Below, piece after piece: positions 4,269 to 43,495 of a DNA stretch of 64,000 bases; the first letter of the stretch is position 1, and every line of letters starts with the position of its first letter. The translations under genes were made by a program, and so were the position numbers. The stretch lies in the NCBI GenBank assembly GCA_964521185.1, contig CAZFRC010000003.1, forward strand, positions 2,112 through 66,111, in the 5' to 3' direction. The notes under the pieces were generated by a model. It had not been told where the DNA came from. It did no database searches and worked only from the letters and a program-made list of their open reading frames with translations. The DNA is from an uncultured Candidatus Saccharibacteria bacterium. GTDB taxonomy: Bacteria; Patescibacteriota; Minisyncoccia; Phycocordibacterales; UBA12088.

Positions 4269-5573
4269 ATGGATAAATTTTCATTTCCCATCCTTGGCGG
4301 CATACTTATTGGGATTGCAGTTATTGGGGTCGCGATGTTTAGCGCATTACGCACCCCTCCATCGAATAAAGAATCTGTAGAAATTCCTAGAACGAACAAT
4401 GGTTTGAGCACTTCTTCTCCATTTTCAGAGATAGAAGATGGCGATCCTGTTGATGAAATTCGATTATCCCCTTCCAAATCCCCCACGCGACCAGAGGGAA
4501 AAATATCGATCCCTTCGAATCCATCTCAAGAAACACCGTCTAACACCCCGTCATACCCGCCAACACCAACAAATCCTTCAAACACGGAAACGAATAGCAC
4601 GCCGAGCTCTTCGTCTTCCGATGGCGGAGGACGGATAGAAGAAGGAATGACACCTCCTCCGCCTCCACCCTCATTTGCCCCGCCGGGAGGATCTTCGTCA
4701 GCCGCCCCATCCGGGGCGCCTTCCTTTTTTTCGGGGCTAAACGACATCGTGCGCGCATCTGTTGTCAATATTTTATGCGAAACAAACGGTGGAGGATCGC
4801 TTCGCCCCATTTCAGCAAGTGGTGTTATGGTGAGCAAAAAAGGAGTCATCATGACAAACGCCCACGTTGCTCAATATTTTCTCCTCAAAAATTATCCGAC
4901 CCCAAACTATGTGACGTGTATCATTCGAACAGGAAGTCCGGCCGCACCCGCATACACCGCTGAAATTCTGTACATATCTCCCCAATGGATTGAAAAAAAC
5001 GCCTTAAACATACGTTTGTCCGAACCGCGCGGAACCGGTGAACACGATTTTGCATTTTTACGCATTACAGGAAGCATGAGTGGTGCGGCGCTTCCCTCTT
5101 CGTTCCCCTTTGTGCCTCCTGACACTGCGGAAAGCGACATACAGGGAGGTGCCGGCGTACTCATTGCTGGATATCCCGCAAGCTTTGTGGGCGCCTCAAC
5201 GGTAATGAGGGATCTCTACGCAGCGTCCACTTTCTCGACGATTGGAGAAATTTTTACGTTTGTTAAAACAACCGCCGATCTTTTCTCAGTTGGCGGAACG
5301 GTGTTAGCCCAAAAAGGAGCTTCGGGAGGCGCAGTGGTAACGCTTTCGGGAAAATTAATCGGCATGGTCGCAACCGCCCAAAGCGGCGAAACCACCGGTG
5401 AAAGTGACTTACGTGCCCTGTCTCTCTTCTATATCAATCGAGCGCTTGCAGAAGATGCCGGAATTACGATTGACGGGCTTCTTCAGAGTGATCTTGTGGC
5501 GTACGCAAACACGTTCAACGCGACCCGATCACCAGCACTTACTCAGATATTAATAAATGTATTAGGGGAATAA
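4269..5573 (+). CDS. Membrane-anchored trypsin-like (S1/HtrA-type) serine protease with a Pro/Ser/Thr-rich linker
   Basis: N-terminal TM helix (FPILGGILIGIAVIGVAMF); low-complexity P/S/T/G region; C-terminal domain with TNAHV (His) and GASGGAVV (Ser) motifs resembling GNSGGPL of S1C peptidases. Confidence 0.6.
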   Translation: MDKFSFPILGGILIGIAVIGVAMFSALRTPPSNKESVEIPRTNNGLSTSSPFSEIEDGDPVDEIRLSPSKSPTRPEGKISIPSNPSQETPSNTPSYPPTPTNPSNTETNSTPSSSSSDGGGRIEEGMTPPPPPPSFAPPGGSSSAAPSGAPSFFSGLNDIVRASVVNILCETNGGGSLRPISASGVMVSKKGVIMTNAHVAQYFLLKNYPTPNYVTCIIRTGSPAAPAYTAEILYISPQWIEKNALNIRLSEPRGTGEHDFAFLRITGSMSGAALPSSFPFVPPDTAESDIQGGAGVLIAGYPASFVGASTVMRDLYAASTFSTIGEIFTFVKTTADLFSVGGTVLAQKGASGGAVVTLSGKLIGMVATAQSGETTGESDLRALSLFYINRALAEDAGITIDGLLQSDLVAYANTFNATRSPALTQILINVLGE

Positions 5574-5574
5574 A

Positions 5575-5611
5575 GGGATCAAAAACAGCAACACGACCCC
5601 TTGAGGTCGTG
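5575..5611 (-). terminator. Intrinsic terminator oriented for the minus strand (CACGACC-ccttga-GGTCGTG, then a U-tract on the minus strand)
   Basis: 7-bp GC stem at 5592-5611; the minus strand continues TTGCTGTTTTTGATCC. On the plus strand only an A-tract precedes it, so it is directional. Confidence 0.55.
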
Positions 5612-5697
5612 TGATGGTTGGCGGGGAGTGCAAAGAACTTATTTATGCACTCACCCGCCTCCCTGATCTCAGGAACCGCCTGCTAGAGGCGGTTCGA

Positions 5698-26227: not shown

Positions 26228-27226
26228 ATGCGACGCAATTCATACAAATGGCTCCCTAGCCGGTCGGTGGGCATTTCACTCGTTTTGGTTGGCGTATTGA
26301 TAACGGGAAGCGCGTGGTACACCACTTACGGTCACAACCTTTTTGCATTGAACACGGAAAGCATACCTGAATCCGGAAGCGTCGAAAGAGTTCTTGATTC
26401 CGATAACGACGGACTCAAAGACTGGGAAGAAACACTTTGGAACACCGATCCAAACCTCCCCGATTCTGATAATGACGGCATGTCTGACGGTGAAGAAGTG
26501 TCTCTGGGTACTGCCCCAAACGGAGAAGAATCGAGCAGCTTGGTAAATGAAATAATGGCAACGTCTTCCGAGTTTGTCGCCTCCGCCTCATCCCCCCTGA
26601 CCCCCACCGATCAATTTTCCCGCTTGTTTTTCAAGCATTTTATTGAATCCCAAAACACACAAGACCCGAGCGGACGCTTTAGTGATCCAAGAGAAATTGA
26701 GATCTTAATTGCAGAGGCTGATACGATTCGAAACAAACCTCCCAAATACACGAGAAGCGATATTTTGATAGTTCCAGACGTAACGCCTAAAGAACTTCGC
26801 GTCTACGGAAATGCGGTTAGCCACGCATACGCAATCCACACGAAACCGGGAGCTGAAGCGGAATTCGTGGTTTTAAACCGAGCGCTTGTCACAAACAACA
26901 AAGCGGATTTTGCGAAGCTTGCCGACGCCGCCGACATGTACTGGAACGGAGCTCAGGAGCTTCTGAAACTTCCAGCACCGGAATCATTGGCCGGGTTCCA
27001 GCTCGCGATCATTAACAGCACGGTGGGCCTTTCCTACGCCATCCGAGATTTGAGCGTGATGCCCGATGATCCTCTTCGAGGAGTGCTCGGATTGCGCTCA
27101 TATTATGAACGGTTTCAGTCGCTCGTGAGCAGCATATCTGCAATGTCCCGATATTTTGCCGCTTTTAACATACACTTTTCACCAACAGAAGACGGGTACA
27201 TGTTTGAAATCCTCAAAATCAAGTGA
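26228..27226 (+). CDS. Membrane-anchored or secreted protein with thrombospondin-type-3-like Ca-binding repeats
   Basis: N-terminal TM helix (SLVLVGVLITGSAW); two DSDNDGxxDxEE repeats (DSDNDGLKDWEE, DSDNDGMSDGEE); starts 4 nt after the rsmA stop; first gene of the T4SS-like block. Confidence 0.5.
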   Translation: MRRNSYKWLPSRSVGISLVLVGVLITGSAWYTTYGHNLFALNTESIPESGSVERVLDSDNDGLKDWEETLWNTDPNLPDSDNDGMSDGEEVSLGTAPNGEESSSLVNEIMATSSEFVASASSPLTPTDQFSRLFFKHFIESQNTQDPSGRFSDPREIEILIAEADTIRNKPPKYTRSDILIVPDVTPKELRVYGNAVSHAYAIHTKPGAEAEFVVLNRALVTNNKADFAKLADAADMYWNGAQELLKLPAPESLAGFQLAIINSTVGLSYAIRDLSVMPDDPLRGVLGLRSYYERFQSLVSSISAMSRYFAAFNIHFSPTEDGYMFEILKIK

Positions 27227-27304
27227 GCCTCCATCACACCGAGCTGTTATTCACAGCTACGCTACCGACTTTCGCCCTAAATCGCCCTATACTTAAGCTA
27301 CGTC

Positions 27305-28762
27305 ATGTATCAAGGGCAATTTCTTTCCCATTTTTTTGGGCATGAGCTGGTTAAAAGGATATTGACCGCCTGCGTGGTCATATCATTTGTCGCTCCGTCA
27401 ATATTTTCGAGCTTCGCTCCAAAAAAAGCCGACGCGTATTGGCTCGTTGAAGACCCCCTTCATATTGTCGAAACAGTCTACAACGGAGTGCTACTTGCGC
27501 TTAAATATGCCGAAAGCATACGGGCAAACTTTAAAGAGTATGTACTCGACCCCGCGGCGTATTTTCTTGCGCACGCCCTGCTGCAGCAAGTGACTCTTTC
27601 CGTAGTTGACTGGATAAATAGCGATTTTGAGGGTTGGCCTCGATTCGTTGACGATCCGGCCGTCTTTTTCACCAATGTCGCCGATCAGGCCGCGGGAGGA
27701 TTTATCCTCGAAAAAAGCGGGGACGACCCTTTGCTCAAAAAGAGTCTGGACTTTTTATGCAACCCGAGACTCCTCCGATTCGCGCTCGCAAACAATTATG
27801 TGCGCGGATTTTCCGACCGATACGCGTGCACCCTTTCAACCATTTCCGCCAATTGGGAAAATTTTACGACAAACATAGAAAATGGAGGGTGGGCTATGTG
27901 GTTTCAAATGAGCCAGCGGGGGCAGAATCCTTATGATGAATATGTAGTGTCAGCAGAGGAACTTTCTCGAAGAATACTGGGGGCGCAAAAAACGATTGAG
28001 AATCAGGCTAATCAGGGAAGCGGGTTTCTCCCTCAGTGGATGAAAGACTGTATCTATGCAGATCCAGAGAGTCCGGAAGCCCTAAACAAGGAAGGGACGC
28101 TCGCGAACTGTCCGGTTGTTGGTCCGGGACACACGGTATCCAGGCTTCTTGACAAAGCTTTGGGATCAAGCATTTTCGATGAGAAAAATTTTGCGGATGA
28201 GTTTGGAGAATCTATTTCCCTCATTTTTAACGCTCTTCTATCTAAAATATTCGAATGGGGTATCGCCGCGCTAGGTCAAGCCGGCACAGGTTCCAGCCCG
28301 ACAGGAGGATCGTTCTTGGACGATTTTCGTGGAACGGTTTCAGACAGTTTTACAGAGGTTGAAGATACTCTGGAAGAAAGAATGAGGCAGCAGCGCGCCC
28401 TTGAGGTTGAGTACCGATCAGAACTTGGATGCGAACCTGAACCTCCGCCAGCCGGATCCCCTTCCGCAACCGCAGAAAGCGAGGAGTGCCAGAAAGCCGC
28501 CAATAACATTAGAAAAATCGACGAGCTCCTTGATAAACTTGCCTCCGCAGAAGCATCCGAAGACCAAGAAGAATTGATTCGCGTGACGCAAGAAGTAAGC
28601 GCTGAATATTCTGAGCTTCTCCCAGACCTTACCAACCAAGGCAACATATTACGTGAGAATCAGGAATCCTCAAGTTCTGGCGGCGGCACTCCCCTTAACC
28701 CGCCACCAACCGGTACTGGTAGTAGCGAAAAACCGGGAACACCTCCAAATCCGGCTAACTGA
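27305..28762 (+). CDS. Hypothetical membrane-anchored protein with a Gly/Ser/Pro-rich C-terminus
   Basis: N-terminal TM helix (ILTACVVISFVAPSIFSSFA); no recognised domain; C-term SSSSGGGTPLNPPPTGTGSSEKPGTPPNPAN. Confidence 0.45.
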   Translation: MYQGQFLSHFFGHELVKRILTACVVISFVAPSIFSSFAPKKADAYWLVEDPLHIVETVYNGVLLALKYAESIRANFKEYVLDPAAYFLAHALLQQVTLSVVDWINSDFEGWPRFVDDPAVFFTNVADQAAGGFILEKSGDDPLLKKSLDFLCNPRLLRFALANNYVRGFSDRYACTLSTISANWENFTTNIENGGWAMWFQMSQRGQNPYDEYVVSAEELSRRILGAQKTIENQANQGSGFLPQWMKDCIYADPESPEALNKEGTLANCPVVGPGHTVSRLLDKALGSSIFDEKNFADEFGESISLIFNALLSKIFEWGIAALGQAGTGSSPTGGSFLDDFRGTVSDSFTEVEDTLEERMRQQRALEVEYRSELGCEPEPPPAGSPSATAESEECQKAANNIRKIDELLDKLASAEASEDQEELIRVTQEVSAEYSELLPDLTNQGNILRENQESSSSGGGTPLNPPPTGTGSSEKPGTPPNPAN

Positions 28763-28774
28763 TAATCCCATACA

Positions 28775-31324
28775 ATGGAAATGGAATACGCGCCGACACC
28801 CAGCGATCCCTCAACGGGACACTCTCGACAAAAAAAACTTTTTTTAAAGAAGGTGTTTATCAACTTTTTAACCTTCTTTTTCTTTTTTAATATTTCTTTT
28901 GTCTTTTTCCACATTATCTCGAGTGACCCAAAAGGACCGGGGTATGTAAGCGCGGACCCAACGAATCAAAATCAAAATATTGCTGTAACGGTAAGCAACG
29001 CAGCACAACCCGGAGCTGTTTATAGCTGTTATTGGTGGTTTCTTCTCGATTGTCATTTAAGAACAGGATTGGTAGGTATTGGTTCAATGGTTGTGTATGT
29101 GGGCGCACTTATCTTTAATCTCGCCATGGAATTCACCGTTATCAAAATGGGCTATTACATCAATGGAAACACGGGCATAGAAGCGGCGTGGATTGTCCTT
29201 CGTGATTTAGCCAATTTGGGCCTTGTGTACGCCCTTCTGCTTATCGGCATATCCACCATTCTCCGCATTAACCGATATGGATATCGAGTCCTTCTCGCAA
29301 GGATCATTATCGTCGCGCTTCTGGTAAATTTCAGTTTGTTTTTAACCAAGGGTGTGGTCGAGGTTTCCAACGTATTGGCGAATGGAGTATATAAGTTGAT
29401 CGCGGAACCAACAGGACCAGGGTGTAATGGGGGAGTTTCTACGGTTTCGAGCCGAATTTCCGAATGCTCCAACGCCGGAATTTCGGCCGCGATCGTTCAA
29501 ACTACCAGAATATCCTCTATATATGATGGAACCCCTATTGTTGAGAATAGCAACGTAGGTGGCGTTCAAAATATTTCCCAAGGATTTTTAGTGATGGTAT
29601 TTCTGATTATTACGGCCTTTGTGCTTTTGGGAGGAGCTCTTATGCTGATTACCCGCTACATTATACTGATATTCCTTATGATACTCTCGCCTTTAGCCTT
29701 TGTTGCGTGGACGCTACCCAAAACTGAACACTACGCGAAAGAATGGTGGGGAAAGCTCATTAACCAAAGCTTTTTTGCGCCTTTCTATTTGCTTATGATT
29801 TGGGTGTCGCTTAGCGTTTTAAGCGGCATTTCACCAAACCTTACCGGCTCTCTAGGGCAAGCCTTCTCTGGATCAGGTATTGCTGACGTGCTTCTTAATT
29901 TTTGCATCGTCACCGGACTTATGGTTGGTTCGCTTGTTGTCTCAAAAAAATTAGGAGCGTACGGCGCTGACACAGCAATAAACTGGACATCAAGATCAGG
30001 AGGCCGTGCCACGTTTGGGACTCTTGCATTTCTCCAACGCCATACAGTGGGTCGGCTTGCAAACCGAATGGCCACATGGCAAAGGCCGCGCGCATTTCTT
30101 CAAGGAAGCGTTCTTGGCCGATCCGTGCTCAAAGGAATACGCACGGTTGGAAGTTCGAGCTTTGACGTGCGCAACACCGAACTCGGCAGAGGGATAAGCA
30201 GATCGCTTGGAGGAGCAAATCTTGGAAAAGTTGGAGGGGAAGGTGGATATTCCGGACTTCAAAAACGAAGACAAGACGAAAGGGAGGCGGCGAGACGCGA
30301 CGCGATAAGGGAAGCGGAAAGGGTTCACAGCGGAGCCCTCAGCGCAACTCGTCGTCGCGAAATCGCAGGTAACATCGGAAATACGGCTGTAGCTCAAAAC
30401 CTGCGTCAAAGATATGTGGACAGAGCGGTACAAGAAGCGTCTTTAATAGCCGAATCTAAGGCTATTGAAATTGAGGAGCTTGAAAGGCGGCTTGAGGCAA
30501 ACAGGGCAAGAATGCAACTATCAGATACGCCCGAGAGACAGCAGGAGCTAGAGGCAGAAGCAAATCAAATCCAGAACCAGCTTCAAAGCGCGAGGGCAGC
30601 CATTCCTAATATAGACCAGGTTCGAATAAGAGCAACGCAAGAAGCTTCTGAAATGCAGTTCGATGAAAGACGCGTTGCTTCAACGCTTTCCACCATCGAA
30701 GAAACTTTTAGAAATATTCAAAACACCGTTGCTCGAAATGCAGAGGAAGTACAGAGGAGTTCACAAGAAGTACGAAGAACAGAAGAACAGCTGGCAGAGC
30801 TCCAAGCGGAAAATTCAAGACAAGACCTGACTCCTGAACAAAGAAATGCCTCACGTGCACAGCTTGAGAGTGCCACGCGCGCGCACCAAGAAGCACAAGA
30901 AAGACTGAGGCAAATGCAAAACAGACTGAGAGAAAGGCAGGTTGAACTTTCAAGAACGTGGACAGATCTCCAAGAGTGGAGAGGGCACTTACAGCAATAC
31001 ACTGAACCCGGAAATCGCGCGCGCAGAGAGTATTTGGACCGAATACGAAGAGGCGGGCAGTTTATGGAAAGAGTTGTAACGGGTAATTATCTCGCACCGA
31101 ACTCACAAACCCTTGATACTTATTTTAATCCCGTTGACCCTATCGCTCGAGCATTTTTGACACCGAATGAATACGAAGAACAGATTGCTGCGATTGAAAG
31201 GCATTGGAACCGTTCAGACTCCGAAAGATTAGCAGACGCAATAATGCAGCGTCTTGCAAGTCAAGGACAAGGAAATCGCCCTGGAAATCAGACGCCGCCA
31301 GCACAGCCAGCACAACCTCGTTAA
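28775..31324 (+). CDS. VirB6/TrbL-like polytopic membrane protein with a roughly 400-aa coiled-coil C-terminal extension
   Basis: At least 6 predicted TM helices between aa 105 and 400. The C-terminal half is Q/E/R-rich heptad-like (RLEANRARMQLSDTPERQQELEAEANQIQNQLQ...). An AT-rich non-coding-looking stretch at 28820-28920 lies inside the annotated N-terminus, so the true start may be the internal Met near 29088. Confidence 0.5.
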   Translation: MEMEYAPTPSDPSTGHSRQKKLFLKKVFINFLTFFFFFNISFVFFHIISSDPKGPGYVSADPTNQNQNIAVTVSNAAQPGAVYSCYWWFLLDCHLRTGLVGIGSMVVYVGALIFNLAMEFTVIKMGYYINGNTGIEAAWIVLRDLANLGLVYALLLIGISTILRINRYGYRVLLARIIIVALLVNFSLFLTKGVVEVSNVLANGVYKLIAEPTGPGCNGGVSTVSSRISECSNAGISAAIVQTTRISSIYDGTPIVENSNVGGVQNISQGFLVMVFLIITAFVLLGGALMLITRYIILIFLMILSPLAFVAWTLPKTEHYAKEWWGKLINQSFFAPFYLLMIWVSLSVLSGISPNLTGSLGQAFSGSGIADVLLNFCIVTGLMVGSLVVSKKLGAYGADTAINWTSRSGGRATFGTLAFLQRHTVGRLANRMATWQRPRAFLQGSVLGRSVLKGIRTVGSSSFDVRNTELGRGISRSLGGANLGKVGGEGGYSGLQKRRQDEREAARRDAIREAERVHSGALSATRRREIAGNIGNTAVAQNLRQRYVDRAVQEASLIAESKAIEIEELERRLEANRARMQLSDTPERQQELEAEANQIQNQLQSARAAIPNIDQVRIRATQEASEMQFDERRVASTLSTIEETFRNIQNTVARNAEEVQRSSQEVRRTEEQLAELQAENSRQDLTPEQRNASRAQLESATRAHQEAQERLRQMQNRLRERQVELSRTWTDLQEWRGHLQQYTEPGNRARREYLDRIRRGGQFMERVVTGNYLAPNSQTLDTYFNPVDPIARAFLTPNEYEEQIAAIERHWNRSDSERLADAIMQRLASQGQGNRPGNQTPPAQPAQPR

Positions 31325-31342
31325 TGTAATCTTTATGTAACT

Positions 31343-32008
31343 ATGCGATACCAAACAGATTCTAGAGAAACAGCGACCGTCATTCTTCGAGAACGGTTCA
31401 AAGAGCTTCCAAAGCCGATTCAAGATATTATTTCTTCGACAGACATCAGAAACGCGCTTCAAACAGTTTCAAACAAACACCGCCTCCATATTGATCAAGG
31501 GGGGATGCTCGAGAACGTTACCATGATGACTCTCATTGGACTCTACCGAATCGACGAATTTGAAACACGTCTTGCGCACACGCTCCAAATAGACACCGCT
31601 CTTGCAACGGCAATTGCAAACGATATTAATGCGTCGGTTTTTGCTCCCATCAGAGAACAGATACGGAATTATACCGATGCGTCCGCCAAAGAAGCTCCGG
31701 GGACTCCGGCGCAGACGACTTTTGAAGATAAGCCCGAAATCCCCAAACCAAATATCCCCCCTCAAACGATGCCCGCAAACACCTCCAACACGCCCAAGAT
31801 ATCGGAAGAGTCTAAGCAATCGCAGCCGAAAGATATGTCCGAACAAAAAGCAAAACAGGACGTAGCAACAATAAAGCTTGGTCTTACGTCTCCTCAAGAA
31901 ATAAATCTCGCCTCCTCTCAACGTCCGGTGCCACCAGATTCAAACCAGGAAGCCTCCAAAAAACCTTTGCAATCTCGAACAGATCCTTATCGGGAACCGC
32001 CTGAATAG
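31343..32008 (+). CDS. Hypothetical soluble protein with a Pro-rich C-terminus
   Basis: 221 aa; no TM helix and no recognised domain; co-directional with and tightly linked to the T4SS-like genes. Confidence 0.4.
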   Translation: MRYQTDSRETATVILRERFKELPKPIQDIISSTDIRNALQTVSNKHRLHIDQGGMLENVTMMTLIGLYRIDEFETRLAHTLQIDTALATAIANDINASVFAPIREQIRNYTDASAKEAPGTPAQTTFEDKPEIPKPNIPPQTMPANTSNTPKISEESKQSQPKDMSEQKAKQDVATIKLGLTSPQEINLASSQRPVPPDSNQEASKKPLQSRTDPYREPPE

Positions 32009-32095
32009 TGGGACTATAGAGATTTTGGAGCAGCGCACACTCGATACCTTCGGCGCGCTTCAAATTATGAATAGGCAGCATAATACACACACTCT

Positions 32096-32536
32096 ATGCG
32101 ATACCAAGTTCCTCAATTTATTGACATAGAAGATAAGATATTCGGTCCCCTTACCGGCAAGCAATTTGTATACCTTGCGGGTGCGGGAGGATTTTTCGTG
32201 GCGATCTATACATTGTACGGGCTATTTGTGGCGATTTTGGTAAGTCTCCCTATCGTTGCCCTTGCGGTTGCTCTGGCATTTCTTCGGATAAATGAGCTTC
32301 CGTTTGCAACCATACTTGAGTCCGCAATCTATTTTTACATCCGACGAAAAATTTTTCTTTGGAAGAAAAATCGGCCTTCAAATCCAACACAAGGTTCAAA
32401 TGTAAAGACTTCCCCGGAAGGGGTGGCCCCCTATGTTCCAAAATTGTCCGAGAGCCGGCTTAAAGATATTTCTTGGAGTCTGGATATTCATGAGCGTCTC
32501 GACGAAAGTGATCGGACACATAGCCCAAATGAATAA
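32096..32536 (+). CDS. VirB3-like small two-TM membrane protein
   Basis: 146 aa; two adjacent TM helices (FVYLAGAGGFFVAIYTLYGLFVAILV / LPIVALAVALAFL); lies immediately upstream of the VirB4 homolog, the typical VirB3-VirB4 order. Confidence 0.4.
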   Translation: MRYQVPQFIDIEDKIFGPLTGKQFVYLAGAGGFFVAIYTLYGLFVAILVSLPIVALAVALAFLRINELPFATILESAIYFYIRRKIFLWKKNRPSNPTQGSNVKTSPEGVAPYVPKLSESRLKDISWSLDIHERLDESDRTHSPNE

Positions 32537-32561
32537 AAGGATATAGCATTGTATAAGTCCT

Positions 32562-33224
32562 ATGACTACCACTAACCCGTTGCAGAAAGAAAACACTACG
32601 CAAGATTTTGTTCCTATTCAAGAGGTGCGTGACGGAGTCGTTATTCTGAAAGACGGGGGATTACGCGGAGTATTCATGGCATCATCAATCAATCTTGCAC
32701 TTAAATCAGAAGACGAACAGCGGGCAATTTTGGAACAATTTGCGCAAATGCTCGATTCGGTGGATTTCTCCGTTCAGTTTGTTGTGCAATCAAGAAAACT
32801 TGATATCAGACCCTATATTGCGCTACTTGAAAAACGGTATACTGAGGTTGTTGGCGATTTACTTAAGATTCAGGTTCGAGAATACATTGAATTTGTTAAG
32901 ACGTTTTCGGAAAATTCTAATATCATGACGAAAAGTTTTTTTATTGTAGTTCCTTATACGCCAATCCCGCTTGAAGGAGGCGTTGCAGGGCTTCTTTCCC
33001 TGACGAAAAAGAAAACGCCCCAACAAAAAATACAGGGAACAGGAACGGCGTTTGAAGAAAGCCGTTCCCAACTCGAACAACGGATGTCTGTGGTCGAACA
33101 AGGTCTTGCGCGATGCGGGGTCCGTGTTGCACGGCTTGGCACCGAAGAAGTGATCGAGCTGTTTTACCGTCTTTTTAACCTTGGAGAGCTCGAACGGCCG
33201 ATTCCACTTGATAATCGAGCGTAA
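32562..33224 (+). CDS. VirB4 N-terminal (CagE/TrbE/VirB4-type) domain, separate ORF ending in TAA, in frame with the ATPase ORF
   Basis: FVPIQEVRDGVVILKDGGLRGVFMASSINLALKSEDEQRAILEQFAQMLDSV resembles the VirB4 N-domain consensus; same reading frame as 33231-35102, and a single TAA at 33222-33224 separates them. Confidence 0.5.
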   Translation: MTTTNPLQKENTTQDFVPIQEVRDGVVILKDGGLRGVFMASSINLALKSEDEQRAILEQFAQMLDSVDFSVQFVVQSRKLDIRPYIALLEKRYTEVVGDLLKIQVREYIEFVKTFSENSNIMTKSFFIVVPYTPIPLEGGVAGLLSLTKKKTPQQKIQGTGTAFEESRSQLEQRMSVVEQGLARCGVRVARLGTEEVIELFYRLFNLGELERPIPLDNRA

Positions 33225-33230
33225 ATCACC

Positions 33231-35102
33231 ATGGGACTTCTTGATTTTATCACAAAGAAAAAAGAGCCTGAATCCCGCATAGAGGCGGTTCTTCCGCAGG
33301 AAATTTACCAAGCGGGGACACTTGAACTCAAAGACGTGTTGGCGCCTTCGGCGCTTCAAATAACTCCACGCGAACTGAATTTGGGAGATAAAATAGTGCG
33401 TACATTTTTTATTATTTCTTATCCTCGCTACCTAAACGATGGATGGTTCTCCCCGATTATCAATCTGGATAAGGTGTTTGATATTTCTATTTTCGCCCAT
33501 CCGATCGATACTGCGCAGATTCTTCGGAAATTCCAAAAGCGCGTAGCGGAAGTGGAAAGTCAAATTCACACGCGAGAAGAGAAAGGCCTCGTGAGAGATC
33601 CAAAACTGGATACTTCATACGAAGATCTTGAACAGCTCCGAGATCGGCTACAACAAGCCCAAGAACGATTGTTTGATGTTGGGGTATACATTTCAATTTA
33701 CGGAGACTCGAAAGACGAGCTTGACAAGGCGGAGTCGGAAATCAAATCGATTCTTGAGGCGCAGCTCGTATACATCAAACCGGCGCTATTTCAGCAAGAA
33801 CAAGGGTATCGAAGCGTCATTCCGACAGCAACCGATGAACTGAAAGTGCATTCAAAACTCGACTCGTCCCCATTTTCAAGCCTGTTTCCGTTCATATCTT
33901 TCGATCTTACCGCTGACAGAGGAATTCTATACGGAATTAATCGCCACAACTCATCGCTGATTCTCTTCGATAGATTTTCGCTTGAAAACTATAATTCCGT
34001 AACGTTTGCAAAATCCGGTTCAGGAAAATCCTATGCAATAAAACTCGAGATTCTTCGGACGCTTATGTTTGACGTCGACATTATTATTATTGATCCTGAG
34101 CGAGAATACGAGTATTTGGCTGAAGCGGTGGGAGGAAGGTATTTCAATATTTCACTATCCTCCGGTCACACCATTAATCCTTTTGATTTGCCCCCTCTTG
34201 GAGAAGACGAAACCCCGACGAACGTGCTGCGTTCCAACATCATAAACCTTGTCGGGCTTTTTCGAATCATGCTTGGCGGCCTCACCCCCGAAGAAGACGC
34301 GATTATTGATCGCGCCATCACCGAAACGTACGCGCTTAAAGATATCACCGGGAATAACGATTTTACAAACCTCACGCCCCCCCTCCTTTCCGATTTTGAA
34401 TTGGTGCTTGGAGGCATGGAAGGAAGCGAGTCCTTGGTGCAACGTCTTAGTAAATACACGAAAGGAACGTGGGCGGGATTCATTAATCGGCCAACGAACA
34501 TCGATATCAACAAAAAACTTGTCGTGTTTTCCATTAGAGACATGGAAGACGACCTGAAGCCGGTCGCCATGTATATCATCACGAAATACATTTGGACGGC
34601 CATCCGTCGAGAACTTAAAAAACGGATTCTCGTGGTGGATGAGGCGTGGTGGATGATGAAGTATGAAGATACGGCGTCTTTTCTTTACTCTATCGCAAAA
34701 CGTGGTCGCAAATACTATTTGGGGCTCGCCACGATCACCCAAGACGTGGATGATTTTATGAAATCGCCCTACGGCATTCCCATGCTTACGAACTCATCGA
34801 TTCAGCTTCTGCTTAAACAGTCACCAACATCGATTGATGTTCTTCAAAAAACATTTAACCTCACCGACGAAGAAAAATACCTCCTGCTTGAATCCGGCGT
34901 GGGAGAGGGCATATTTTTTGCCGGCCTAAAACATGTGGCTATTAAAATTATTGCCTCGTACACAGAAGACCAGATTATTACCTCGGACCCTTCCCAAATT
35001 CTCCTTATTCAAAAAGCCCGGCAAGCACAAGAAGACGCCCTTGGTACAAGCAATGAATCTCCTTCACGCGCAAAAGCACGTAACGAGATGCCTATCAAAT
35101 AG
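33231..35102 (+). CDS. VirB4/TraC/CagE-family T4SS ATPase (C-terminal ATPase portion)
   Basis: Walker A FAKSGSGKSYAIK; Walker B ILVVDEAWWMM; RGRKYYLGLATITQ motif; 623 aa. Confidence 0.8.
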   Translation: MGLLDFITKKKEPESRIEAVLPQEIYQAGTLELKDVLAPSALQITPRELNLGDKIVRTFFIISYPRYLNDGWFSPIINLDKVFDISIFAHPIDTAQILRKFQKRVAEVESQIHTREEKGLVRDPKLDTSYEDLEQLRDRLQQAQERLFDVGVYISIYGDSKDELDKAESEIKSILEAQLVYIKPALFQQEQGYRSVIPTATDELKVHSKLDSSPFSSLFPFISFDLTADRGILYGINRHNSSLILFDRFSLENYNSVTFAKSGSGKSYAIKLEILRTLMFDVDIIIIDPEREYEYLAEAVGGRYFNISLSSGHTINPFDLPPLGEDETPTNVLRSNIINLVGLFRIMLGGLTPEEDAIIDRAITETYALKDITGNNDFTNLTPPLLSDFELVLGGMEGSESLVQRLSKYTKGTWAGFINRPTNIDINKKLVVFSIRDMEDDLKPVAMYIITKYIWTAIRRELKKRILVVDEAWWMMKYEDTASFLYSIAKRGRKYYLGLATITQDVDDFMKSPYGIPMLTNSSIQLLLKQSPTSIDVLQKTFNLTDEEKYLLLESGVGEGIFFAGLKHVAIKIIASYTEDQIITSDPSQILLIQKARQAQEDALGTSNESPSRAKARNEMPIK

Positions 35103-35105
35103 AAT

Positions 35106-35909
35106 ATGGGCGACACGGAAGCCTTAGAGAGGCGGGCAAAGAACGAAGACAAACTCAAACTACGGATCTCTCCTGAAGTGGGGGCTCTGATGTTTGGCGT
35201 TGCCCTCTTTGTTGACGGTCTTCAGGGGGTCATAGGGATTTTCGGATTAATACCGTTTGTTGGTTTTTTGTTTTCCTTAGTGGGCGCAATGATTTGGCTG
35301 TTGTACACCCTTGGTTTTTGGCTTTGGTTTCACATTCTTGGAGTAACATTTTTTGAGGCCATTGATCAGTCGGGATGGAAGGGCGTAGCCTTATCTTTAG
35401 CAAAAAATATAGTTCGAAGCGTCATCCCTTTAGTTATGTTTTTTCTCAGCTTCATTCCTTTTTTTGGACCTTTACTGACTGGCATTGTGCCAGACGTTGC
35501 GGTTGCGGTAGGCGCGACGATTTTAATTTCTTGGGCGCAAGATAAAGCGCTTTCTGCAGAAACGAAAATGAAAATAGCCCAACAAAAAATGGCACGGATG
35601 GTCCGTCAACGCCAAATGGAAGAAGAAATGGAAGAAGAAGAGGCACAAGCAGAAATGGAAAAGATTGCCGAGGAGGAATATCGACAAAGAGAAGAAGAGA
35701 ATGAGGAACGGGAGAACGACGAGGAGAAAAGTGTAGCAGTGGAATACCTAAAGAGGGAAGAGGAGGAAATGCGCGCTAACGCGCTTCATCAAGGAAATTC
35801 TGCGGTCACGCCAAATGGAGCGGAAGAGTTGTCGCAATATCCAAACCCGCCGCGCCGTACAAAAAGCGGCCGCGTGAATTCCCCATCGTCCTTCCGACAA
35901 CAAACATGA
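35106..35909 (+). CDS. Hypothetical polytopic membrane protein with an acidic coiled-coil tail
   Basis: Four or more TM helices in aa 25-150; E-rich C-terminus (EEEMEEEEAQAEMEKIAEEEYRQREEENEERENDEE); 4 nt after the VirB4 stop. Confidence 0.45.
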   Translation: MGDTEALERRAKNEDKLKLRISPEVGALMFGVALFVDGLQGVIGIFGLIPFVGFLFSLVGAMIWLLYTLGFWLWFHILGVTFFEAIDQSGWKGVALSLAKNIVRSVIPLVMFFLSFIPFFGPLLTGIVPDVAVAVGATILISWAQDKALSAETKMKIAQQKMARMVRQRQMEEEMEEEEAQAEMEKIAEEEYRQREEENEERENDEEKSVAVEYLKREEEEMRANALHQGNSAVTPNGAEELSQYPNPPRRTKSGRVNSPSSFRQQT

Positions 35910-35990
35910 TGCGCAAGATTTTCAGGTGGACCATGGGGTGTGGAGTAGTGGAACATATTGATTGAATGAGGATATATAATACGAAGTACT

Positions 35991-37070
35991 ATGGGGCATT
36001 ATGCGCGTTTGTTTGGAATACTGACTGGGATCTTACTTTTTTCCACTGTACAGGTCGGCGTCGTACTGTCTCAAGCATACATTGACGCTTCTTACGGTTC
36101 TTCATATCAAGATTCTTATTCTGGGTTTTCGATAAGCCCTTTTTCATCTGAAAACGGGCAGTTGATTGGTGCGGCTGAAGGGACACTTTTTTCCATATCC
36201 ACCAAACCCTCAAGACCTCGCGGCCTTGAGCCGGTTACTCTGACCCTTGAAGGGCCTCCTTCGGTAATAAAAAATTCGTATATAGATTGGTTTATCAACC
36301 GAACCCTGACCGCAGAGGGATATGGGAAAACCTTCCTGAAGGTCACGGCTCCTCAGGTTGGGGCCAATATGGAAATTGTGGTTCATATTACTGAACAAAA
36401 TGGAACCACGCATGTGAGCTCATACACGATGATACCCTCGGAAGTCGAGCTCCTATGGAGCACGGAAACTTACGTTCCCCCCATGTTCAAAGGAAAGGCT
36501 CTTGCTTCCTACATGGCACCCGTCCGAGTAACGGCAATTCCTTTTATTCCAGAGGAAGACGGGTTGGCGAAACCAGAAACCCTGATGTACCAGTGGAGCG
36601 TAAATGGGCGCGTCCGAAAAGAATCGGGCATCGGCTCGGATCATATTGACATCCTTCCGGGGCTTCGACAGGCGGTTACCGTTGCTGTTGTCGTATCAAA
36701 CCCTCGAAACCGAGGCGTCGCAAGTATGCAAATTAATATTCCTCGGCTTTCCTCTTTTGTCCAGTTTTATGAAGTCGATCCGATCTTTGGGCTACGGCTC
36801 GAACGTACGCTTGGGGCCGCACATTCATTTAGAACCCCGGAAAGCAGCATTGCGGCAGTGCCTTATTACATGGGAACCCCTACGACGGCCGACGCGTTGT
36901 TTGAATGGAGTATTGATGGCCGCACGTTAGACACGGCCATAGGAGACACCCTAACGCTCCGGCCTTTCCAAGAAGAGCGCGTTGGGCAACGCTCAACGGT
37001 GTCGGTTAGGGTAACCAACCAGAATGATTTTATGACGTGGGCAAACAAGTCAATCGTGGTTCAGTATTAA
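35991..37070 (+). CDS. Hypothetical secreted protein (signal peptide), beta-rich
   Basis: N-term MGHYARLFGILTGILLFSTVQVGVVLSQA; no recognised domain. Confidence 0.45.
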   Translation: MGHYARLFGILTGILLFSTVQVGVVLSQAYIDASYGSSYQDSYSGFSISPFSSENGQLIGAAEGTLFSISTKPSRPRGLEPVTLTLEGPPSVIKNSYIDWFINRTLTAEGYGKTFLKVTAPQVGANMEIVVHITEQNGTTHVSSYTMIPSEVELLWSTETYVPPMFKGKALASYMAPVRVTAIPFIPEEDGLAKPETLMYQWSVNGRVRKESGIGSDHIDILPGLRQAVTVAVVVSNPRNRGVASMQINIPRLSSFVQFYEVDPIFGLRLERTLGAAHSFRTPESSIAAVPYYMGTPTTADALFEWSIDGRTLDTAIGDTLTLRPFQEERVGQRSTVSVRVTNQNDFMTWANKSIVVQY

Positions 37071-37637
37071 ATGAATATGAAAATTTTTCAAAATATTCGA
37101 AACCGTAAAAAGAAGATTTCGTTTTTCCTTGGTGTGGCAAACACCCTGATACTCGCAATGCCGTTTGTTGCATTTGGAGAAGCGCCTACCTCATACATAC
37201 ATCTTGTTCCTCTTCCGGGAGTTACTGCAGGGATTATTGAAAATGTGCCGGCGTTTCTGAACCAGCTTGTGGGAATAACGATTGGCGCGGGCTCTATTCT
37301 CGCAGTCATCATGATTGGAGTCGGCGGCATAGAATACATGGCAAGCGACGCGGTTTTCAGCAAAGACGAAGCACGAAAAAGAATGAGCGACGCGGTTATC
37401 GGCTTATTGATACTTCTCGGCTCTTATGTTCTCCTCTACACTATCAATCCCGACATTGTGAATCTGAACATTTTTCGAAACGCGGAACAATTGGATCCGC
37501 TAAATCTGAGCGCCCCTTCTCCGGGAGGGGCTATCCAGCCACGACCATACCAGGCTACCCCCGAAGGACACTGTCTATATGGGGGGGCATACTATGCTGG
37601 TAAATGTATAGATAAATCCTTAATCCCCAATTTATAA
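37071..37637 (+). CDS. Pilin-like (TrbC/VirB2-like) protein: signal peptide plus two hydrophobic helices
   Basis: Starts directly after the preceding stop (TAAATG); signal and hydrophobic segments ISFFLGVANTLILAMPFVAFG and VGITIGAGSILAVIMIGVGGIEYMA; size and topology resemble conjugative or CPR pilin-like proteins. Confidence 0.5.
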   Translation: MNMKIFQNIRNRKKKISFFLGVANTLILAMPFVAFGEAPTSYIHLVPLPGVTAGIIENVPAFLNQLVGITIGAGSILAVIMIGVGGIEYMASDAVFSKDEARKRMSDAVIGLLILLGSYVLLYTINPDIVNLNIFRNAEQLDPLNLSAPSPGGAIQPRPYQATPEGHCLYGGAYYAGKCIDKSLIPNL

Positions 37638-38944
37638 TGAACACTTCTAAGAAAAAAATAATTGCGGGAGCGGGCGCGTTGGGAATCGTGATCATGTTGT
37701 TATTCGCTTATCTTTTTTGGATTCAAGATGCAGAAGAAATAAATGTTGTTGTCGATGGAACGTTCCCTACGAAAGAAGCGCCCGTGAACCCCGACGGCAG
37801 TCCTCGAACGGAAACAGGTTCCGAAGAGTTTTTGCTTCCCGATAACACAGAAATTCCGTTCGAACGAGTACCCCTTATTCAAGTCTCAGAAACTGCGGGA
37901 GCGGGTGCTGGATTTTACACCGACTCCACGGGGCATGAGTTTGTTCGATACGTAGATCGGGAAAATGGGCACATATTCCAGTTCGATCTTAAAACCGAAG
38001 CGCGCCAAAAAATATCTGGAGTGACGCTTCCCGGAGTAATCGAAGCGGTTTGGAACTCAAAAGGTACCGACGTAGCCCTTCGCTACCTTGACGAGACCTT
38101 CATGGTTCGCACGTTTATCGCGTCTTTGTCTCCCAAAAGCGATGGCACGGTTACCATTACTGGCCAATTCCTTCCAGACAGCGTCACTTCTATTGCTCCT
38201 TATTCTGCGAAAAATGTTACCGGGTTCGCCTACACGAGAGTCTTTGGAGGGGGCGCTTCCTTGTTTATACAAGAAGAGAGCGGTGTGGCCAAAGAGGTGT
38301 TTCGTTCTCCGTTTCCGGAATGGATTATAGTCTCTTCTTTGCACGGAGCGATACTGCTTGGGTCACGGGCTTCAACAAAAGAGACTGGCGTAGTGCTCAA
38401 AATTGACGGGGAATCAGGTGGGGTCACGAAAATGGCTTCCGGAGCGCTTGGCATGTCGGCAACAATAGATCCAACCGGAACATGGCTCCTTACTTCTGAG
38501 TATGCTGATGGCTCCATGCGTACATTTGTTCAAAACACACGAGCCCCAATGATTTCGGAGCCCGTTCAAACTTCCATAAACACTTTGGCAGAAAAATGTG
38601 TGTGGGGGGTTAAAAATGCGGCATCGTCAACCCCACGGGTGTTTTGCGCTTCCCCCATTAATTGGAGCGAGGTGGGTGTTGACGTTCCAGACAGCTGGTA
38701 TCGAGGAGAGGTGTCTTTCTCGGACGAGTTTGTCTATTTTGACCCTATAACCAACACTCCCTTTCCCCTTCTGGTGCCAGAACTCGGCATGAACATGCCT
38801 GTTGACGCAGTGCATCCCATAGCAAACCATACAGGAGAATATGTGGTTTTCAAAAATAAACCGGACGGGATCATTTGGGCGCTCCCCGTTCACAAGGCCG
38901 AAGCAGCAGTGAATAAGTTTATAGAGGCGCACGAAGGCGAGTAG
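37637..38944 (+). CDS. Hypothetical membrane-anchored extracytoplasmic protein
   Basis: Start overlaps the previous stop (TAATG); TM helix IIAGAGALGIVIMLLFAYLFW; beta-rich body; last gene of the cluster. Confidence 0.45.
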   Translation: MNTSKKKIIAGAGALGIVIMLLFAYLFWIQDAEEINVVVDGTFPTKEAPVNPDGSPRTETGSEEFLLPDNTEIPFERVPLIQVSETAGAGAGFYTDSTGHEFVRYVDRENGHIFQFDLKTEARQKISGVTLPGVIEAVWNSKGTDVALRYLDETFMVRTFIASLSPKSDGTVTITGQFLPDSVTSIAPYSAKNVTGFAYTRVFGGGASLFIQEESGVAKEVFRSPFPEWIIVSSLHGAILLGSRASTKETGVVLKIDGESGGVTKMASGALGMSATIDPTGTWLLTSEYADGSMRTFVQNTRAPMISEPVQTSINTLAEKCVWGVKNAASSTPRVFCASPINWSEVGVDVPDSWYRGEVSFSDEFVYFDPITNTPFPLLVPELGMNMPVDAVHPIANHTGEYVVFKNKPDGIIWALPVHKAEAAVNKFIEAHEGE

Positions 38945-40728: not shown

Positions 40729-42117
40729 GTGTCGAGTTTGTTTATGAAAGATATAATTGTCGGAATGGAAGCGATTGACACCAGACAATTATGGGAAAAT
40801 GTATTGGTTGATATCGAACTATCGATTCCGCGCGCAACGTTTAACACCTGGTTTCGCGGAACTCGCATCGTCCGCTACGAGGAGGGGACGGTATACGTGG
40901 GAGTGCCGAACAATCTTGCGCGCGACTGGTTTAAGGATAAATACCATAAACTTATTCTCCGCGCGCTGCGAACACTTGCCGAAGACGTCCGTTCTGTTGA
41001 ATATATCATCGCAAAACAGGAATCCAGCCGCGAACACGCCGAACGCATCATACGGAAAACTCCCACAAACGAGCTGCCGTTTCAAGAGCTTTATATTGAT
41101 CGTAGAGATCATTTGAACCCCCGGTACACGTTTGAAACTCTCGTGGTGGGGCCTTTTAACGAACTTGCACACGCGGCCGCCCAAGCAATCGTGAAAAGCC
41201 CCGCAATCACCTATAACCCCCTCTATATCTATGGAAATACCGGATATGGAAAAACTCATCTGGCACAGGCTGTAGGAAATCAGATTAAAAAAATTAGTCC
41301 AGGGAAAAAAATTTATTACGTCACTTCAGAAAAGTTCACTATCGACGTATTAAACGGCATACAAACCAACTCTATGCCAAACTTTAAAGACCGCTACCGA
41401 CAGTATGACGTTCTGATTATGGACGACGTACAGTTTGTTTCAGGAAAAGAAAAAACCCAAGAAGAGCTTTTTCATCTTTTTAACGTACTCTATGACAATA
41501 ATAAACAGATTATCTTTACCTCTGACAAACATCCTGGATATCTTCAAAATATCGAAGAGCGCCTGAAATCCCGCTTTAAACAAGGAATGGTGGTTGATAT
41601 TTCAGATCCGGATTTTGAATCCCGCCTTGCAATTATTATGACCAAAGCCGCTGCAAATAATTTTACCCTAACCCCCGAAATTGCCGAACACTTGGCAAGA
41701 TCTATCGACGGAAATATTCGGGAACTTGAGGGTGCATTAAATGCGGTGATGCTCCAGTCTCAGATACACGATCGAACACTCACCATTGCAGACGTTCGAA
41801 ATCTTATAAAAGATAGTGGAAAAACCAAAAAAACAATCTCAACCAAGGAAATAGTTAAGAAAGTTGCCGAATTTTACAATATTGAAGAACAAATCATTTA
41901 CGACAAGACACGAAAAAAAGAAGTGGTGCGTCCACGACAAATCATTATGTTTATTTTGAGAGAGGATTTTCGTGAATCTTTCCCTTCGATTGGAGAAAAG
42001 CTTGGAGGTCGCGACCATACTACCGTTATCCATTCCTGTGAAAAGATTAGAGGGGATATTCAAACCGATTCCCTTCTTCTCCAGGAAATTAACCAGATCC
42101 GTGCGATGCTTAAGTAG
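40729..42117 (+). CDS. dnaA: Chromosomal replication initiator DnaA
   Basis: Domain I ...LWENVLVDIELSIPRATFNTWF; AAA+ Walker A GNTGYGKTHLAQA; box VII; C-terminal HTH HTTVIHSC. The track begins with GTG 40729; canonical N-termini suggest ATG 40744 or 40765. Confidence 0.93.
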   Translation: MSSLFMKDIIVGMEAIDTRQLWENVLVDIELSIPRATFNTWFRGTRIVRYEEGTVYVGVPNNLARDWFKDKYHKLILRALRTLAEDVRSVEYIIAKQESSREHAERIIRKTPTNELPFQELYIDRRDHLNPRYTFETLVVGPFNELAHAAAQAIVKSPAITYNPLYIYGNTGYGKTHLAQAVGNQIKKISPGKKIYYVTSEKFTIDVLNGIQTNSMPNFKDRYRQYDVLIMDDVQFVSGKEKTQEELFHLFNVLYDNNKQIIFTSDKHPGYLQNIEERLKSRFKQGMVVDISDPDFESRLAIIMTKAAANNFTLTPEIAEHLARSIDGNIRELEGALNAVMLQSQIHDRTLTIADVRNLIKDSGKTKKTISTKEIVKKVAEFYNIEEQIIYDKTRKKEVVRPRQIIMFILREDFRESFPSIGEKLGGRDHTTVIHSCEKIRGDIQTDSLLLQEINQIRAMLK

Positions 42118-42394
42118 GGTTCCTCGGTAGGAAGTAAGAAAGCGTGCGAAGTATGTGTGAATATTCCGTGTATAACTTGAAAACTTTTCTGGAAATTTAT
42201 TGTTTTCAAGCCATTCAACCCCAATACCATAACGGCTCTCATTTAGAAATGGGCATTTTCTCCCCAGCTTCTCCGATTTCGATGGATAAAAATACTTTGA
42301 AAAATATAGCGCCCAGGGGTTTGTCCCCATATCCACACTAATAATAGTAATAGTAAAGTATCTTTCCTTTTAAATAATAAGTACTGTTATACCC
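42118..42394. promoter_or_regulatory. Candidate oriC (dnaA-dnaN spacer): DnaA-box-like sites and an AT-rich unwinding element
   Basis: aTATCCACA at 42329-42337 (one mismatch to TTATCCACA); degenerate boxes gaTGGATAA (42282-42290) and TGTGtGAat (42154-42162); an AT-rich run at 42338-42390 precedes dnaN. Confidence 0.5.
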
Positions 42395-43495
42395 ATGAAG
42401 TTTGAAGCTTCCAAACCCGCCTTATTAGACGCAGTAGCAACCGCCGAAAGAGCCAGTGGGAAAAACTTGCCTCTTGCTGTTCTAAACGACGTGGTTGTGT
42501 CTGCTCAAGAGGGGAAGATATTCGTTCGCGCGACCAATCTTGATCTTGCAATAGAAATACAGGTTCCAGGCAAAATACTGCGAGAAGGGGATGTGGCGGT
42601 GCCGGGGGCAATATTTCGCGACACCATAGCCGCTTCTAGAGAAGATTCAGTGATTAAGGTTGAGTCTGATGATCGGTTTCTTTCAGTTACCATGAGGGGA
42701 GGTAGTGCTCGTATTGCCGCTCGTCCAACAGATGATTTTCCTAATTTCCCAAATTTAGAAAAAGCCCCTATGGTTTCCATTCCCGCTAATGATTTAGTGA
42801 AGGGATTTCGTTCGGTCGCTTTTAGCTCCTCGGTTTCAACGATACGGCCAGAACTTGGAACCGTTGCGATTTTTCCAGGGTCTGGATCTTTGGTATTTGT
42901 TGCAACAGATTCATTTCGTTTGGCAGAAAAAACCATTCAATTAGAGCGGCCCCCTAAAATTGACCCTTTTCTCGTTCCTATTCGCAATGTAACTGAAATT
43001 ATACGCGCTCTTGAGGGTCTTGAGGGTAATGTTGAGTTTCGATATGCAGAACATCACGCATGTATTTCCCATGGATCACTGGCAATCGCAACGAGACTTG
43101 TTGACGGTAATTTTCCGGATTATAAACAGATTATTCCGAAAGATCATCAGACGACAATTACAGCTCTGTCAGGTGATGTTCTCCACACACTTAAAACGGC
43201 GGGTATTTTTTCGGACAAACTTGCTCACATTCGGTTATCTCTTAAAAAAGGGGGAGATACTTTAATGGTGAGTGCCCAGACTCCCGAAAGAGGGGAAATT
43301 ACCGCAAGTCTTCCGGCAAAAATAAGCGGGGAGTCAATCGAAATAAGTTTCAATCAAAAATATCTACTAGACGCATTTCAATCCATTCATACAGACTCAA
43401 TTACGCTTAAACTACACGGTCCCGGACGTCCGGTGATTGTTGAGGGTGTGGGAGACATGACATTTCTCTATCTGGTAATGCCGATGAATCGATAA
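42395..43495 (+). CDS. dnaN: DNA polymerase III beta sliding clamp
   Basis: 366 aa; three-domain clamp pattern; conserved termini MKFEASKPALLDAVATAER and ...LYLVMPMNR. Confidence 0.9.
   Translation: MKFEASKPALLDAVATAERASGKNLPLAVLNDVVVSAQEGKIFVRATNLDLAIEIQVPGKILREGDVAVPGAIFRDTIAASREDSVIKVESDDRFLSVTMRGGSARIAARPTDDFPNFPNLEKAPMVSIPANDLVKGFRSVAFSSSVSTIRPELGTVAIFPGSGSLVFVATDSFRLAEKTIQLERPPKIDPFLVPIRNVTEIIRALEGLEGNVEFRYAEHHACISHGSLAIATRLVDGNFPDYKQIIPKDHQTTITALSGDVLHTLKTAGIFSDKLAHIRLSLKKGGDTLMVSAQTPERGEITASLPAKISGESIEISFNQKYLLDAFQSIHTDSITLKLHGPGRPVIVEGVGDMTFLYLVMPMNR

Follow-up and report, generated by a model that had tools for sequence, protein, structure and literature searches.

Separate genes for a TrsD-like protein and a VirB4 ATPase adjoin in a chromosomal T4SS cluster of Patescibacteria

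Two neighbouring open reading frames (ORFs) of the window, i.e., of the whole stretch of 64,000 nucleotides analysed here, very probably represent two separate, co-transcribed genes of a chromosomal T4SS of the Paceibacteria-type Patescibacteria: one for a TrsD/TraD-like protein of 220 aa and one for a VirB4 ATPase of 623 aa. In a preliminary description, they had been read as a VirB4 homologue interrupted by a single in-frame TAA, and four explanations had been offered: a naturally split two-chain VirB4, a recent nonsense mutation, a sequencing or assembly error, or readthrough of the stop codon. Overall, this interpretation is partly supported. Among the four options, only the natural split turned out to be the right one, with the two genes separated in all 79 related loci. 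The picture of an interruption had to be given up in favour of two separate conserved genes, which are out of frame with each other in 67 of these loci. The other three options are contradicted by the relatives, which use three different stop codons at this position, are mostly out of frame, and show overlaps and inserted genes. The features of the cluster are collected in Table 1.

Table 1. Genes of the T4SS cluster and the junction under study, in window coordinates.
Feature	Coordinates	Strand	Basis
VirB6/TrbL-like polytopic membrane protein, 849 aa	28775..31324	+	TrbL and CD3337/EF1877 matches below cutoff; hydrophobic segments
PrgI / VirB3-like small membrane protein, 146 aa	32096..32536	+	Pfam PF12666 PrgI, 47.2 bits vs cutoff 27
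TrsD/TraD-like protein, 220 aa	32562..33224	+	NCBIfam matches; homologue lengths; Foldseek matches to TrwK/VirB4
Gene junction	33222..33230	+	TAA (33222-33224) and 6-nt spacer ATCACC, then ATG at 33231
VirB4-like T4SS ATPase, 623 aa, CD1110 family type	33231..35102	+	NCBIfam, Pfam, Walker motifs, BLASTP
T4SS pilin-like (VirB2-like) protein, 188 aa	37071..37637	+	Pfam PF18895 T4SS_pilin, 25.5 bits, cutoff 26.6

Re-reading the sequence confirmed the positions of both ORFs as well as their common frame, as they had been described. The 220-aa ORF runs from an ATG to a TAA, and two further codons, ATC ACC, lead to the ATG of the 623-aa ORF, which is closed by a TAG. Translation across the junction gives ...PLDNRA(stop)ITMGLLDF..., and both ORFs together amount to 845 codons. 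For adjacent genes, the probability of sharing a frame by chance is one in three. Taken alone, the shared frame thus has no statistical weight and is not evidence of an interruption; the stop and the start after it fall into one frame by a coincidence of spacing. A reassigned stop codon was also considered and ruled out: all three stop codons terminate genes of the window (TAA 23, TAG 15 and TGA 12 times among 50 likely genes) and occur at the junction of the relatives, and with TAA being the commonest of them, there is no hint of codon reassignment. No Shine-Dalgarno site was found before the ATPase ORF. This is uninformative, since motifs of this kind precede only 8 of the 50 genes.

The 623-aa product passes the NCBIfam model conju_CD1110 (NF045971), whose cutoff is 325 bits, with a score of 368.6 bits (E = 6.1e-110), covering only positions 183-733 of the 752 in the model; in the VirB4_plasma model, it occupies positions 289-893 of 894. 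Pfam matches were obtained for P-loop_TraG, AAA_10 and DUF87. The Walker A motif, FAKSGSGKSYAIK, has the core GSGKS, and the Walker B motif reads RILVVDEAWW. By BLASTP, the stretch matched in a fused VirB4 of 796 aa from Enterococcus faecalis spans residues 215-772 (E = 1e-37). Because the alignments begin near position 183 of the 752 in CD1110 and at residue 215 of the 796 in the enterococcal protein, the ORF still contains the remainder of the part that precedes the P-loop domain on its N-terminal side. The earlier statement that the ATPase would be produced without its membrane-associated N-domain was imprecise, and no transmembrane segment is predicted in the 220-aa protein.

On the grounds of model matches and fold comparison, we regard the 220-aa protein as TrsD/TraD-like and as a remote homologue of the N-terminal part of fused VirB4. 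The NCBIfam TrsD/TraD model (NF041427) was matched with 43.7 bits (E = 2.6e-11), where residues 9-130 align to model positions 11-142 of 201. The curated cutoff of this model, 200 bits, is not reached; judged by these scores, the protein is homologous to TrsD/TraD but falls outside the curated NF041427 subfamily. The genomic setting is of the NF041427 type: the protein is free-standing, within the usual size of approximately 200-230 aa, and its gene is flanked by a VirB3-like gene on one side and the gene of a VirB4-like ATPase on the other. This setting recurs in all 79 relatives. Two models of fused VirB4 proteins were matched as well, VirB4_plasma at positions 99-233 of 894 (E = 7.6e-11) and CD1110 at positions 2-118 of 752 (E = 1.4e-5). 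Every one of the NCBIfam scores lies far under the curated cutoff, and the homology to the VirB4 N-terminus must hence be called remote. Even so, the two ORFs map onto the fused models in a colinear way, the stretches matched by the 220-aa protein being followed, in either model, by those matched by the ATPase. The similarity of the upstream ORF to the N-terminal part of VirB4, which had been noticed before, is thus borne out, albeit remotely.

The fold search points in the same direction. AlphaFold gave a model of mediocre quality for the 220-aa protein, with a pLDDT of 61.6. The top 14 Foldseek matches of this model in the PDB all belong to TrwK/VirB4 of R388, with E-values from 8e-4 to 7e-2 and TM-scores of only approximately 0.4. 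Sequence searches of the PDB with the profile of the 220-aa family returned no match, even at E = 10. With hhalign, the family gave no match to one fused enterococcal VirB4 and a weak one to TrsD of Staphylococcus aureus (E = 0.004), which is why the homology claim rests on the NCBIfam models and the fold search. The identical protein P0001 and each of the 120 listed homologues carry a precomputed PF26593 ("TraC-like") annotation; our local Pfam scan of the 220-aa protein did not recover PF26593, even at E = 10. An internal duplication, which would make the 220-aa protein a paralogue of residues 1-240 of the ATPase, was considered separately and rejected, as hhalign returned a probability of 0.16% for two family alignments of 77 and 76 sequences.

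Relatives of the 220-aa protein are abundant. A search of a collection of 5.8 billion proteins scored 7,894 homologues, and the best 120 of these are all 210-242 aa long, share 60-70% identity with the query and come from Patescibacteria wherever the source is named. An alignment of 16 sequences of the family holds 70 invariant columns, and the C-terminal ends are conserved. We fetched 80 related loci, all from metagenome-assembled genomes of Patescibacteria, and used the 79 with enough downstream DNA for the junction counts. Whether the split position is conserved in related genomes, a question raised in the preliminary description, can be answered from the comparison of these loci: it is, without exception. 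In each of them, the TrsD-like gene closes with a stop codon (TAA in 54, TAG in 17 and TGA in 8 loci), the VirB4 ATPase gene follows downstream, and its ATG is aligned with residue 1 of the ATPase ORF of the window (M-G/S-L/I-F-D...). Both proteins are strongly conserved across the loci, with 58-66% and 64-81% identity, respectively.

The spacing of the two genes varies considerably more. The ATPase gene lies in the frame of the TrsD-like gene in 12 loci, in frame +1 in 37 and in frame +2 in 30, so that in-frame pairs are scarcer than the approximately 26 expected by chance among 79. The median spacer measures 5 nt; five junctions overlap (four as ATGA, one as TAATG), and nine spacers exceed 100 nt. 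In at least four loci, another gene is located between the two; in L007, L009, L017 and L031, it is a whole ORF for a 23S-rRNA-intervening-sequence protein (four-helix bundle), a family assignment that Pfam confirmed in both ORFs tested. The closest relative, with 70% identity and from a different sample, continues after the same ...PLDNRA end with TAA TAA tta ccc ATG.

The remaining genes of the cluster agree with the gene set of a Patescibacteria T4SS, which comprises VirB4, TrsD and PrgI/VirB3 and is completed here by a VirB6-like protein and a VirB2-like pilin, the last two with matches below threshold. Directly upstream of the TrsD-like gene, the PrgI/VirB3-like protein shows one strongly hydrophobic stretch at approximately residues 27-71. 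The 849-aa protein has multiple hydrophobic segments and weak matches to TrbL in Pfam (E = 0.0022) and to CD3337/EF1877 in NCBIfam (E = 2.4e-4), both under the curated cutoffs. Hydrophobic segments are also found in the pilin-like protein, whose PF18895 score falls just short of the cutoff. The genes dnaA and dnaN (40729-43495) follow 1.8 kb downstream of the cluster, and the T4SS cluster of the window is chromosomal.

How the two chains might work together can be outlined from these data. The TrsD-like protein is the counterpart of the first 200 or so residues of the VirB4 that other monoderm systems make as a single chain; here and throughout the lineage, it is made separately. As a soluble chain, it may dock in trans on both the ATPase and the PrgI/VirB3 protein encoded just upstream, and would then stand in for the N-terminal segment of VirB4 by tethering and organising the ATPase at the membrane translocon. 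Such docking in trans is suggested by the fusion patterns of the module, by the strict adjacency of the two genes and by their colinearity with fused VirB4. A joint action of TrsD and VirB3/PrgI is likewise suggested by a PrgI-TrsD fusion on an Embleya plasmid (see below). Junctions that are 1-8 nt long or overlapping suggest that the TrsD-like gene and the ATPase gene could moreover be translationally coupled, which would keep the amounts of the two chains matched.

Several other readings of the junction have to be weighed against two separate genes. A recent nonsense mutation could have cut a once-single virB4 gene and left a pseudogene or a decaying operon; the common frame, with just a TAA and two codons in between, fits such an event, and so does the combined length, which resembles that of fused VirB4 (796 aa in E. 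faecalis). We give this reading next to no credence, as the split sits at the same protein position in all 79 loci and thereby in many lineages of the Patescibacteria, with three different stop codons and 67 loci out of frame, while both proteins and the start codon of the ATPase are strongly conserved and the remainder of the T4SS cluster is intact. The chances of a false stop codon from sequencing or assembly are just as negligible. Apart from the source probably being a metagenome-assembled genome, there is no specific point in its favour, and NCBI and Logan both record the exact 220-aa and 623-aa products on one contig; the nearest relative, which stems from a different sample, stops after the same residues with two stop codons, and every other relative stops here, too. 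Programmed or low-level readthrough, by which some fused 845-aa VirB4 would be made beside the separate chains, finds a little more to build on, namely the in-frame arrangement with a linker of two codons, its recurrence in 12 of the 79 relatives and in the closest one, and the likeness of the fused product to a natural single-chain VirB4. It is still very improbable. Because the two genes are out of frame or overlap in 67 of the 79 relatives, fusion of the chains is ruled out as a requirement conserved in the group. The closest relative carries a tandem TAA TAA, in-frame pairs are depleted rather than enriched, and the stop codon in question is the one most used in the window. Taken together, the data on the relatives exclude, for all practical purposes, that the stop arose by a recent mutation or by misassembly, or that its readthrough is a conserved mechanism. 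Only with great reserve would we entertain the bolder idea that the in-frame junction, here and in the nearest relative, yields the 845-aa isoform at a low level, or, in a weaker form, that the deficit of in-frame pairs among the relatives reflects selection against fusion. If true, readthrough would supply a third functional isoform of the ATPase beside the two separate chains, and selection against in-frame junctions would mean that the physical separation of the chains matters for function.

A further alternative concerns the role of the TrsD-like protein and not the junction. The protein could be an independent accessory factor of the T4SS, e.g., for assembly or regulation, that shares its ancestry with the VirB4 N-terminus and does not act as a domain bound to the ATPase. 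This is in line with the remoteness of the homology, with the genes that can intervene between the pair, and with TrsD homologues of Gracilibacteria that are reportedly not associated with virB4 (PMC12102498). Against it stand the adjacency and order of the pair, kept in all 79 loci and in plasmids of Bacillota, the colinearity of both ORFs with fused VirB4 models, the PrgI-TrsD fusion in Embleya, and structural matches that are restricted to VirB4. We consider an independent factor unlikely, though less so than any of the readings of the junction discussed above.

With two separate genes as the preferred reading, the pair of TrsD-like gene and ATPase gene is to be regarded as normal T4SS architecture of Patescibacteria. 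Annotators should neither mark it as a pseudogene or a frameshifted VirB4 nor merge the ORFs. The TrsD-like module stands alone in Patescibacteria, in pGO1-type plasmids and in megaplasmids of Bacillota, forms one chain with the ATPase in proteins of the PrgJ/CD1110 type, and is joined to VirB3/PrgI on an actinomycete plasmid. These varied fusions point to TrsD as a link between VirB3 and the ATPase and provide a testable hypothesis for its role; the comparative picture of the module is mildly useful in this regard.

Among known systems, the conjugative plasmids of staphylococci and enterococci (MPF-FATA class) encode TrsD (pGO1) or TraD (pSK41, pIP501-type) together with TrsE/TraE in the same order as the window. 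Shared by the window and the pGO1-type plasmids is a VirB3-like gene, followed by the gene of a free-standing protein of approximately 220 aa and by that of a VirB4-like ATPase of 620-670 aa. On the pGO1-type plasmid SAP069A of S. aureus, for instance, a VirB3-like gene precedes trsD (227 aa), a spacer of 14 nt and an ATPase of 672 aa. The window differs from these plasmids in its TrsD, which is only remotely similar (43.7 bits against the cutoff of 200; E = 0.004 in hhalign), and in its chromosomal location near dnaA; its T4SS cluster showed neither a relaxase nor a coupling protein. Megaplasmids of Pontibacillus and Clostridium perfringens carry a TrsD-like gene (274-312 aa) and then a VirB4 of 621-641 aa; the gene upstream of the TrsD-like gene is annotated as PrgI in C. 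perfringens and codes for a small hypothetical protein in Pontibacillus.

In the single-chain VirB4 proteins of monoderms, i.e., PrgJ of the pCF10 type and the CD1110 and Mbov_0397 families, the N-terminal segment of approximately 200 residues belongs to the same chain as the ATPase, whereas it is a separate polypeptide in the window. The ORFs of the window are colinear with these fused models; in the Mbov_0397 model (894 positions), they cover positions 99-233 and 289-893. A third arrangement was found on a plasmid of Embleya (Actinomycetota), where a 349-aa "PrgI family protein" contains a TrsD-like module fused to PrgI, in contrast to the free-standing form of the window. The 220-aa family aligns to its residues 136-245 in hhalign (probability 96.9%, E = 1.8e-10), and a separate ATPase gene adjoins. 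Such PrgI-TrsD fusions of Actinomycetota are related to proteins of the SCO6880 family.

The closest correspondence is with the T4SS of the Patescibacteria themselves. TrsD was reported as the T4SS component most abundantly recovered in this group, with 1,664 out of its 2,272 homologues located next to virB4, and as a remote homologue of the VirB4 N-terminus; it was described there as being without an experimentally assigned function (Quinonero-Coronel et al. 2025, PMC12102498). In the same study, the TrsD homologue of Southlakia epibionticum ML1 is listed as essential, and the T4SS of Patescibacteria is noted to lie often near the replication origin. In S. epibionticum, the one strain of Patescibacteria tested, epibiotic growth was shown to require the T4SS (Wang et al. 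2023, PMC10633639). Compared with these systems (PMC12102498, PMC10633639), the window has the same components and the same position near the origin, with no difference of substance. As the pairing of TrsD and VirB4 has already been reported (PMC12102498), the window provides a further instance of a documented architecture, and the arrangement is known and does not constitute a new kind of system. What is added here is the detail of the junction only, i.e., the frames, the spacers, the inserted genes and the tandem stops.

At the junction between the TrsD-like gene and the ATPase gene virB4, both genes share a reading frame in 12 of the 79 related Patescibacteria loci that reach far enough downstream, which is less than the one third expected (binomial p 0.0005); since these loci are phylogenetically related, the p-value exaggerates the deficit. 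The deficit could stem from common descent, from a preferred distance for coupling, or from avoidance of in-frame readthrough. The commonest spacers among the relatives are 1 and 4 nt. The TrsD-like gene most closely related to that of the window (locus L086) is likewise in frame with its ATPase gene, and a tandem TAA TAA precedes the ATPase start there (4649-4663). In the window, a Shine-Dalgarno-like motif precedes only 8 of 50 likely genes, and initiation of translation in this genome appears mostly independent of Shine-Dalgarno sequences.

In four related genomes, the TrsD-like gene and virB4 are separated by an ORF of 114-134 aa (see the table below), which resembles a small insertion of mobile or opportunistic nature. 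Two relatives encode VirB4 ORFs of 1,264-1,266 aa, each with an intein of approximately 660 aa that carries a LAGLIDADG homing endonuclease and lies near the P-loop region. At 760 aa, the VirB4 of another relative (L008, 6675-8954) exceeds the family median (about 604 aa). The difference points to approximately 150 additional residues at the C-terminus; the extra part has no Pfam match.

Positions of the gene clusters and ORFs discussed (L007, L009, L017, L031, L036 and L058 are loci of related Patescibacteria genomes)
Feature	Sequence	Position	Remark
T4SS gene cluster	window	26228-38944	chromosomal
dnaA-dnaN	window	40729-43495	downstream of T4SS cluster
Intervening ORF	L007	4312-4757	23S-rRNA-intervening-sequence protein by motif resemblance only
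Intervening ORF	L009	6619-7043	Pfam: 23S-rRNA-intervening-sequence protein (PF05635)
Intervening ORF	L017	6646-7113	23S-rRNA-intervening-sequence protein by motif resemblance only
Intervening ORF	L031	6631-7045	Pfam: 23S-rRNA-intervening-sequence protein (PF05635); bAvd-like match
VirB4 ATPase ORF with intein	L036	6629-10426	Pfam Intein_splicing and LAGLIDADG_3
VirB4 ATPase ORF with intein	L058	6634-10425	Pfam Intein_splicing and LAGLIDADG_3

Housekeeping genes for PNPase, a UvrD-type helicase and the rRNA adenine dimethylase RsmA/KsgA flank the window's T4SS cluster. Since 1.8 kb separates its end from dnaA-dnaN downstream, the cluster adjoins the presumed replication origin. This is in agreement with the location beside the origin reported for Patescibacteria T4SS loci (PMC12102498). 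Within the cluster, the genes at 27305-28762, 31343-32008, 35106-35909, 35991-37070 and 37637-38944 received no Pfam or NCBIfam assignment; hydrophobic N-terminal segments were observed in those starting at 35106, 35991 and 37637. The unassigned genes may encode the lineage-specific T4SS components that the literature mentions, e.g., VirB8-like proteins or cell-wall hydrolases.

A different arrangement was found on the Embleya sp. plasmid NZ_CP108778 (L083), where residues 136-245 of a 349-aa 'PrgI family protein' (4596-5645) form a TrsD-like region (hhalign probability 96.9%). The ATPase is encoded by a gene of its own downstream, with one small gene in between. The TrsD-like module is fused to the VirB3-like membrane protein on the Embleya plasmid, whereas it is free-standing in the window.
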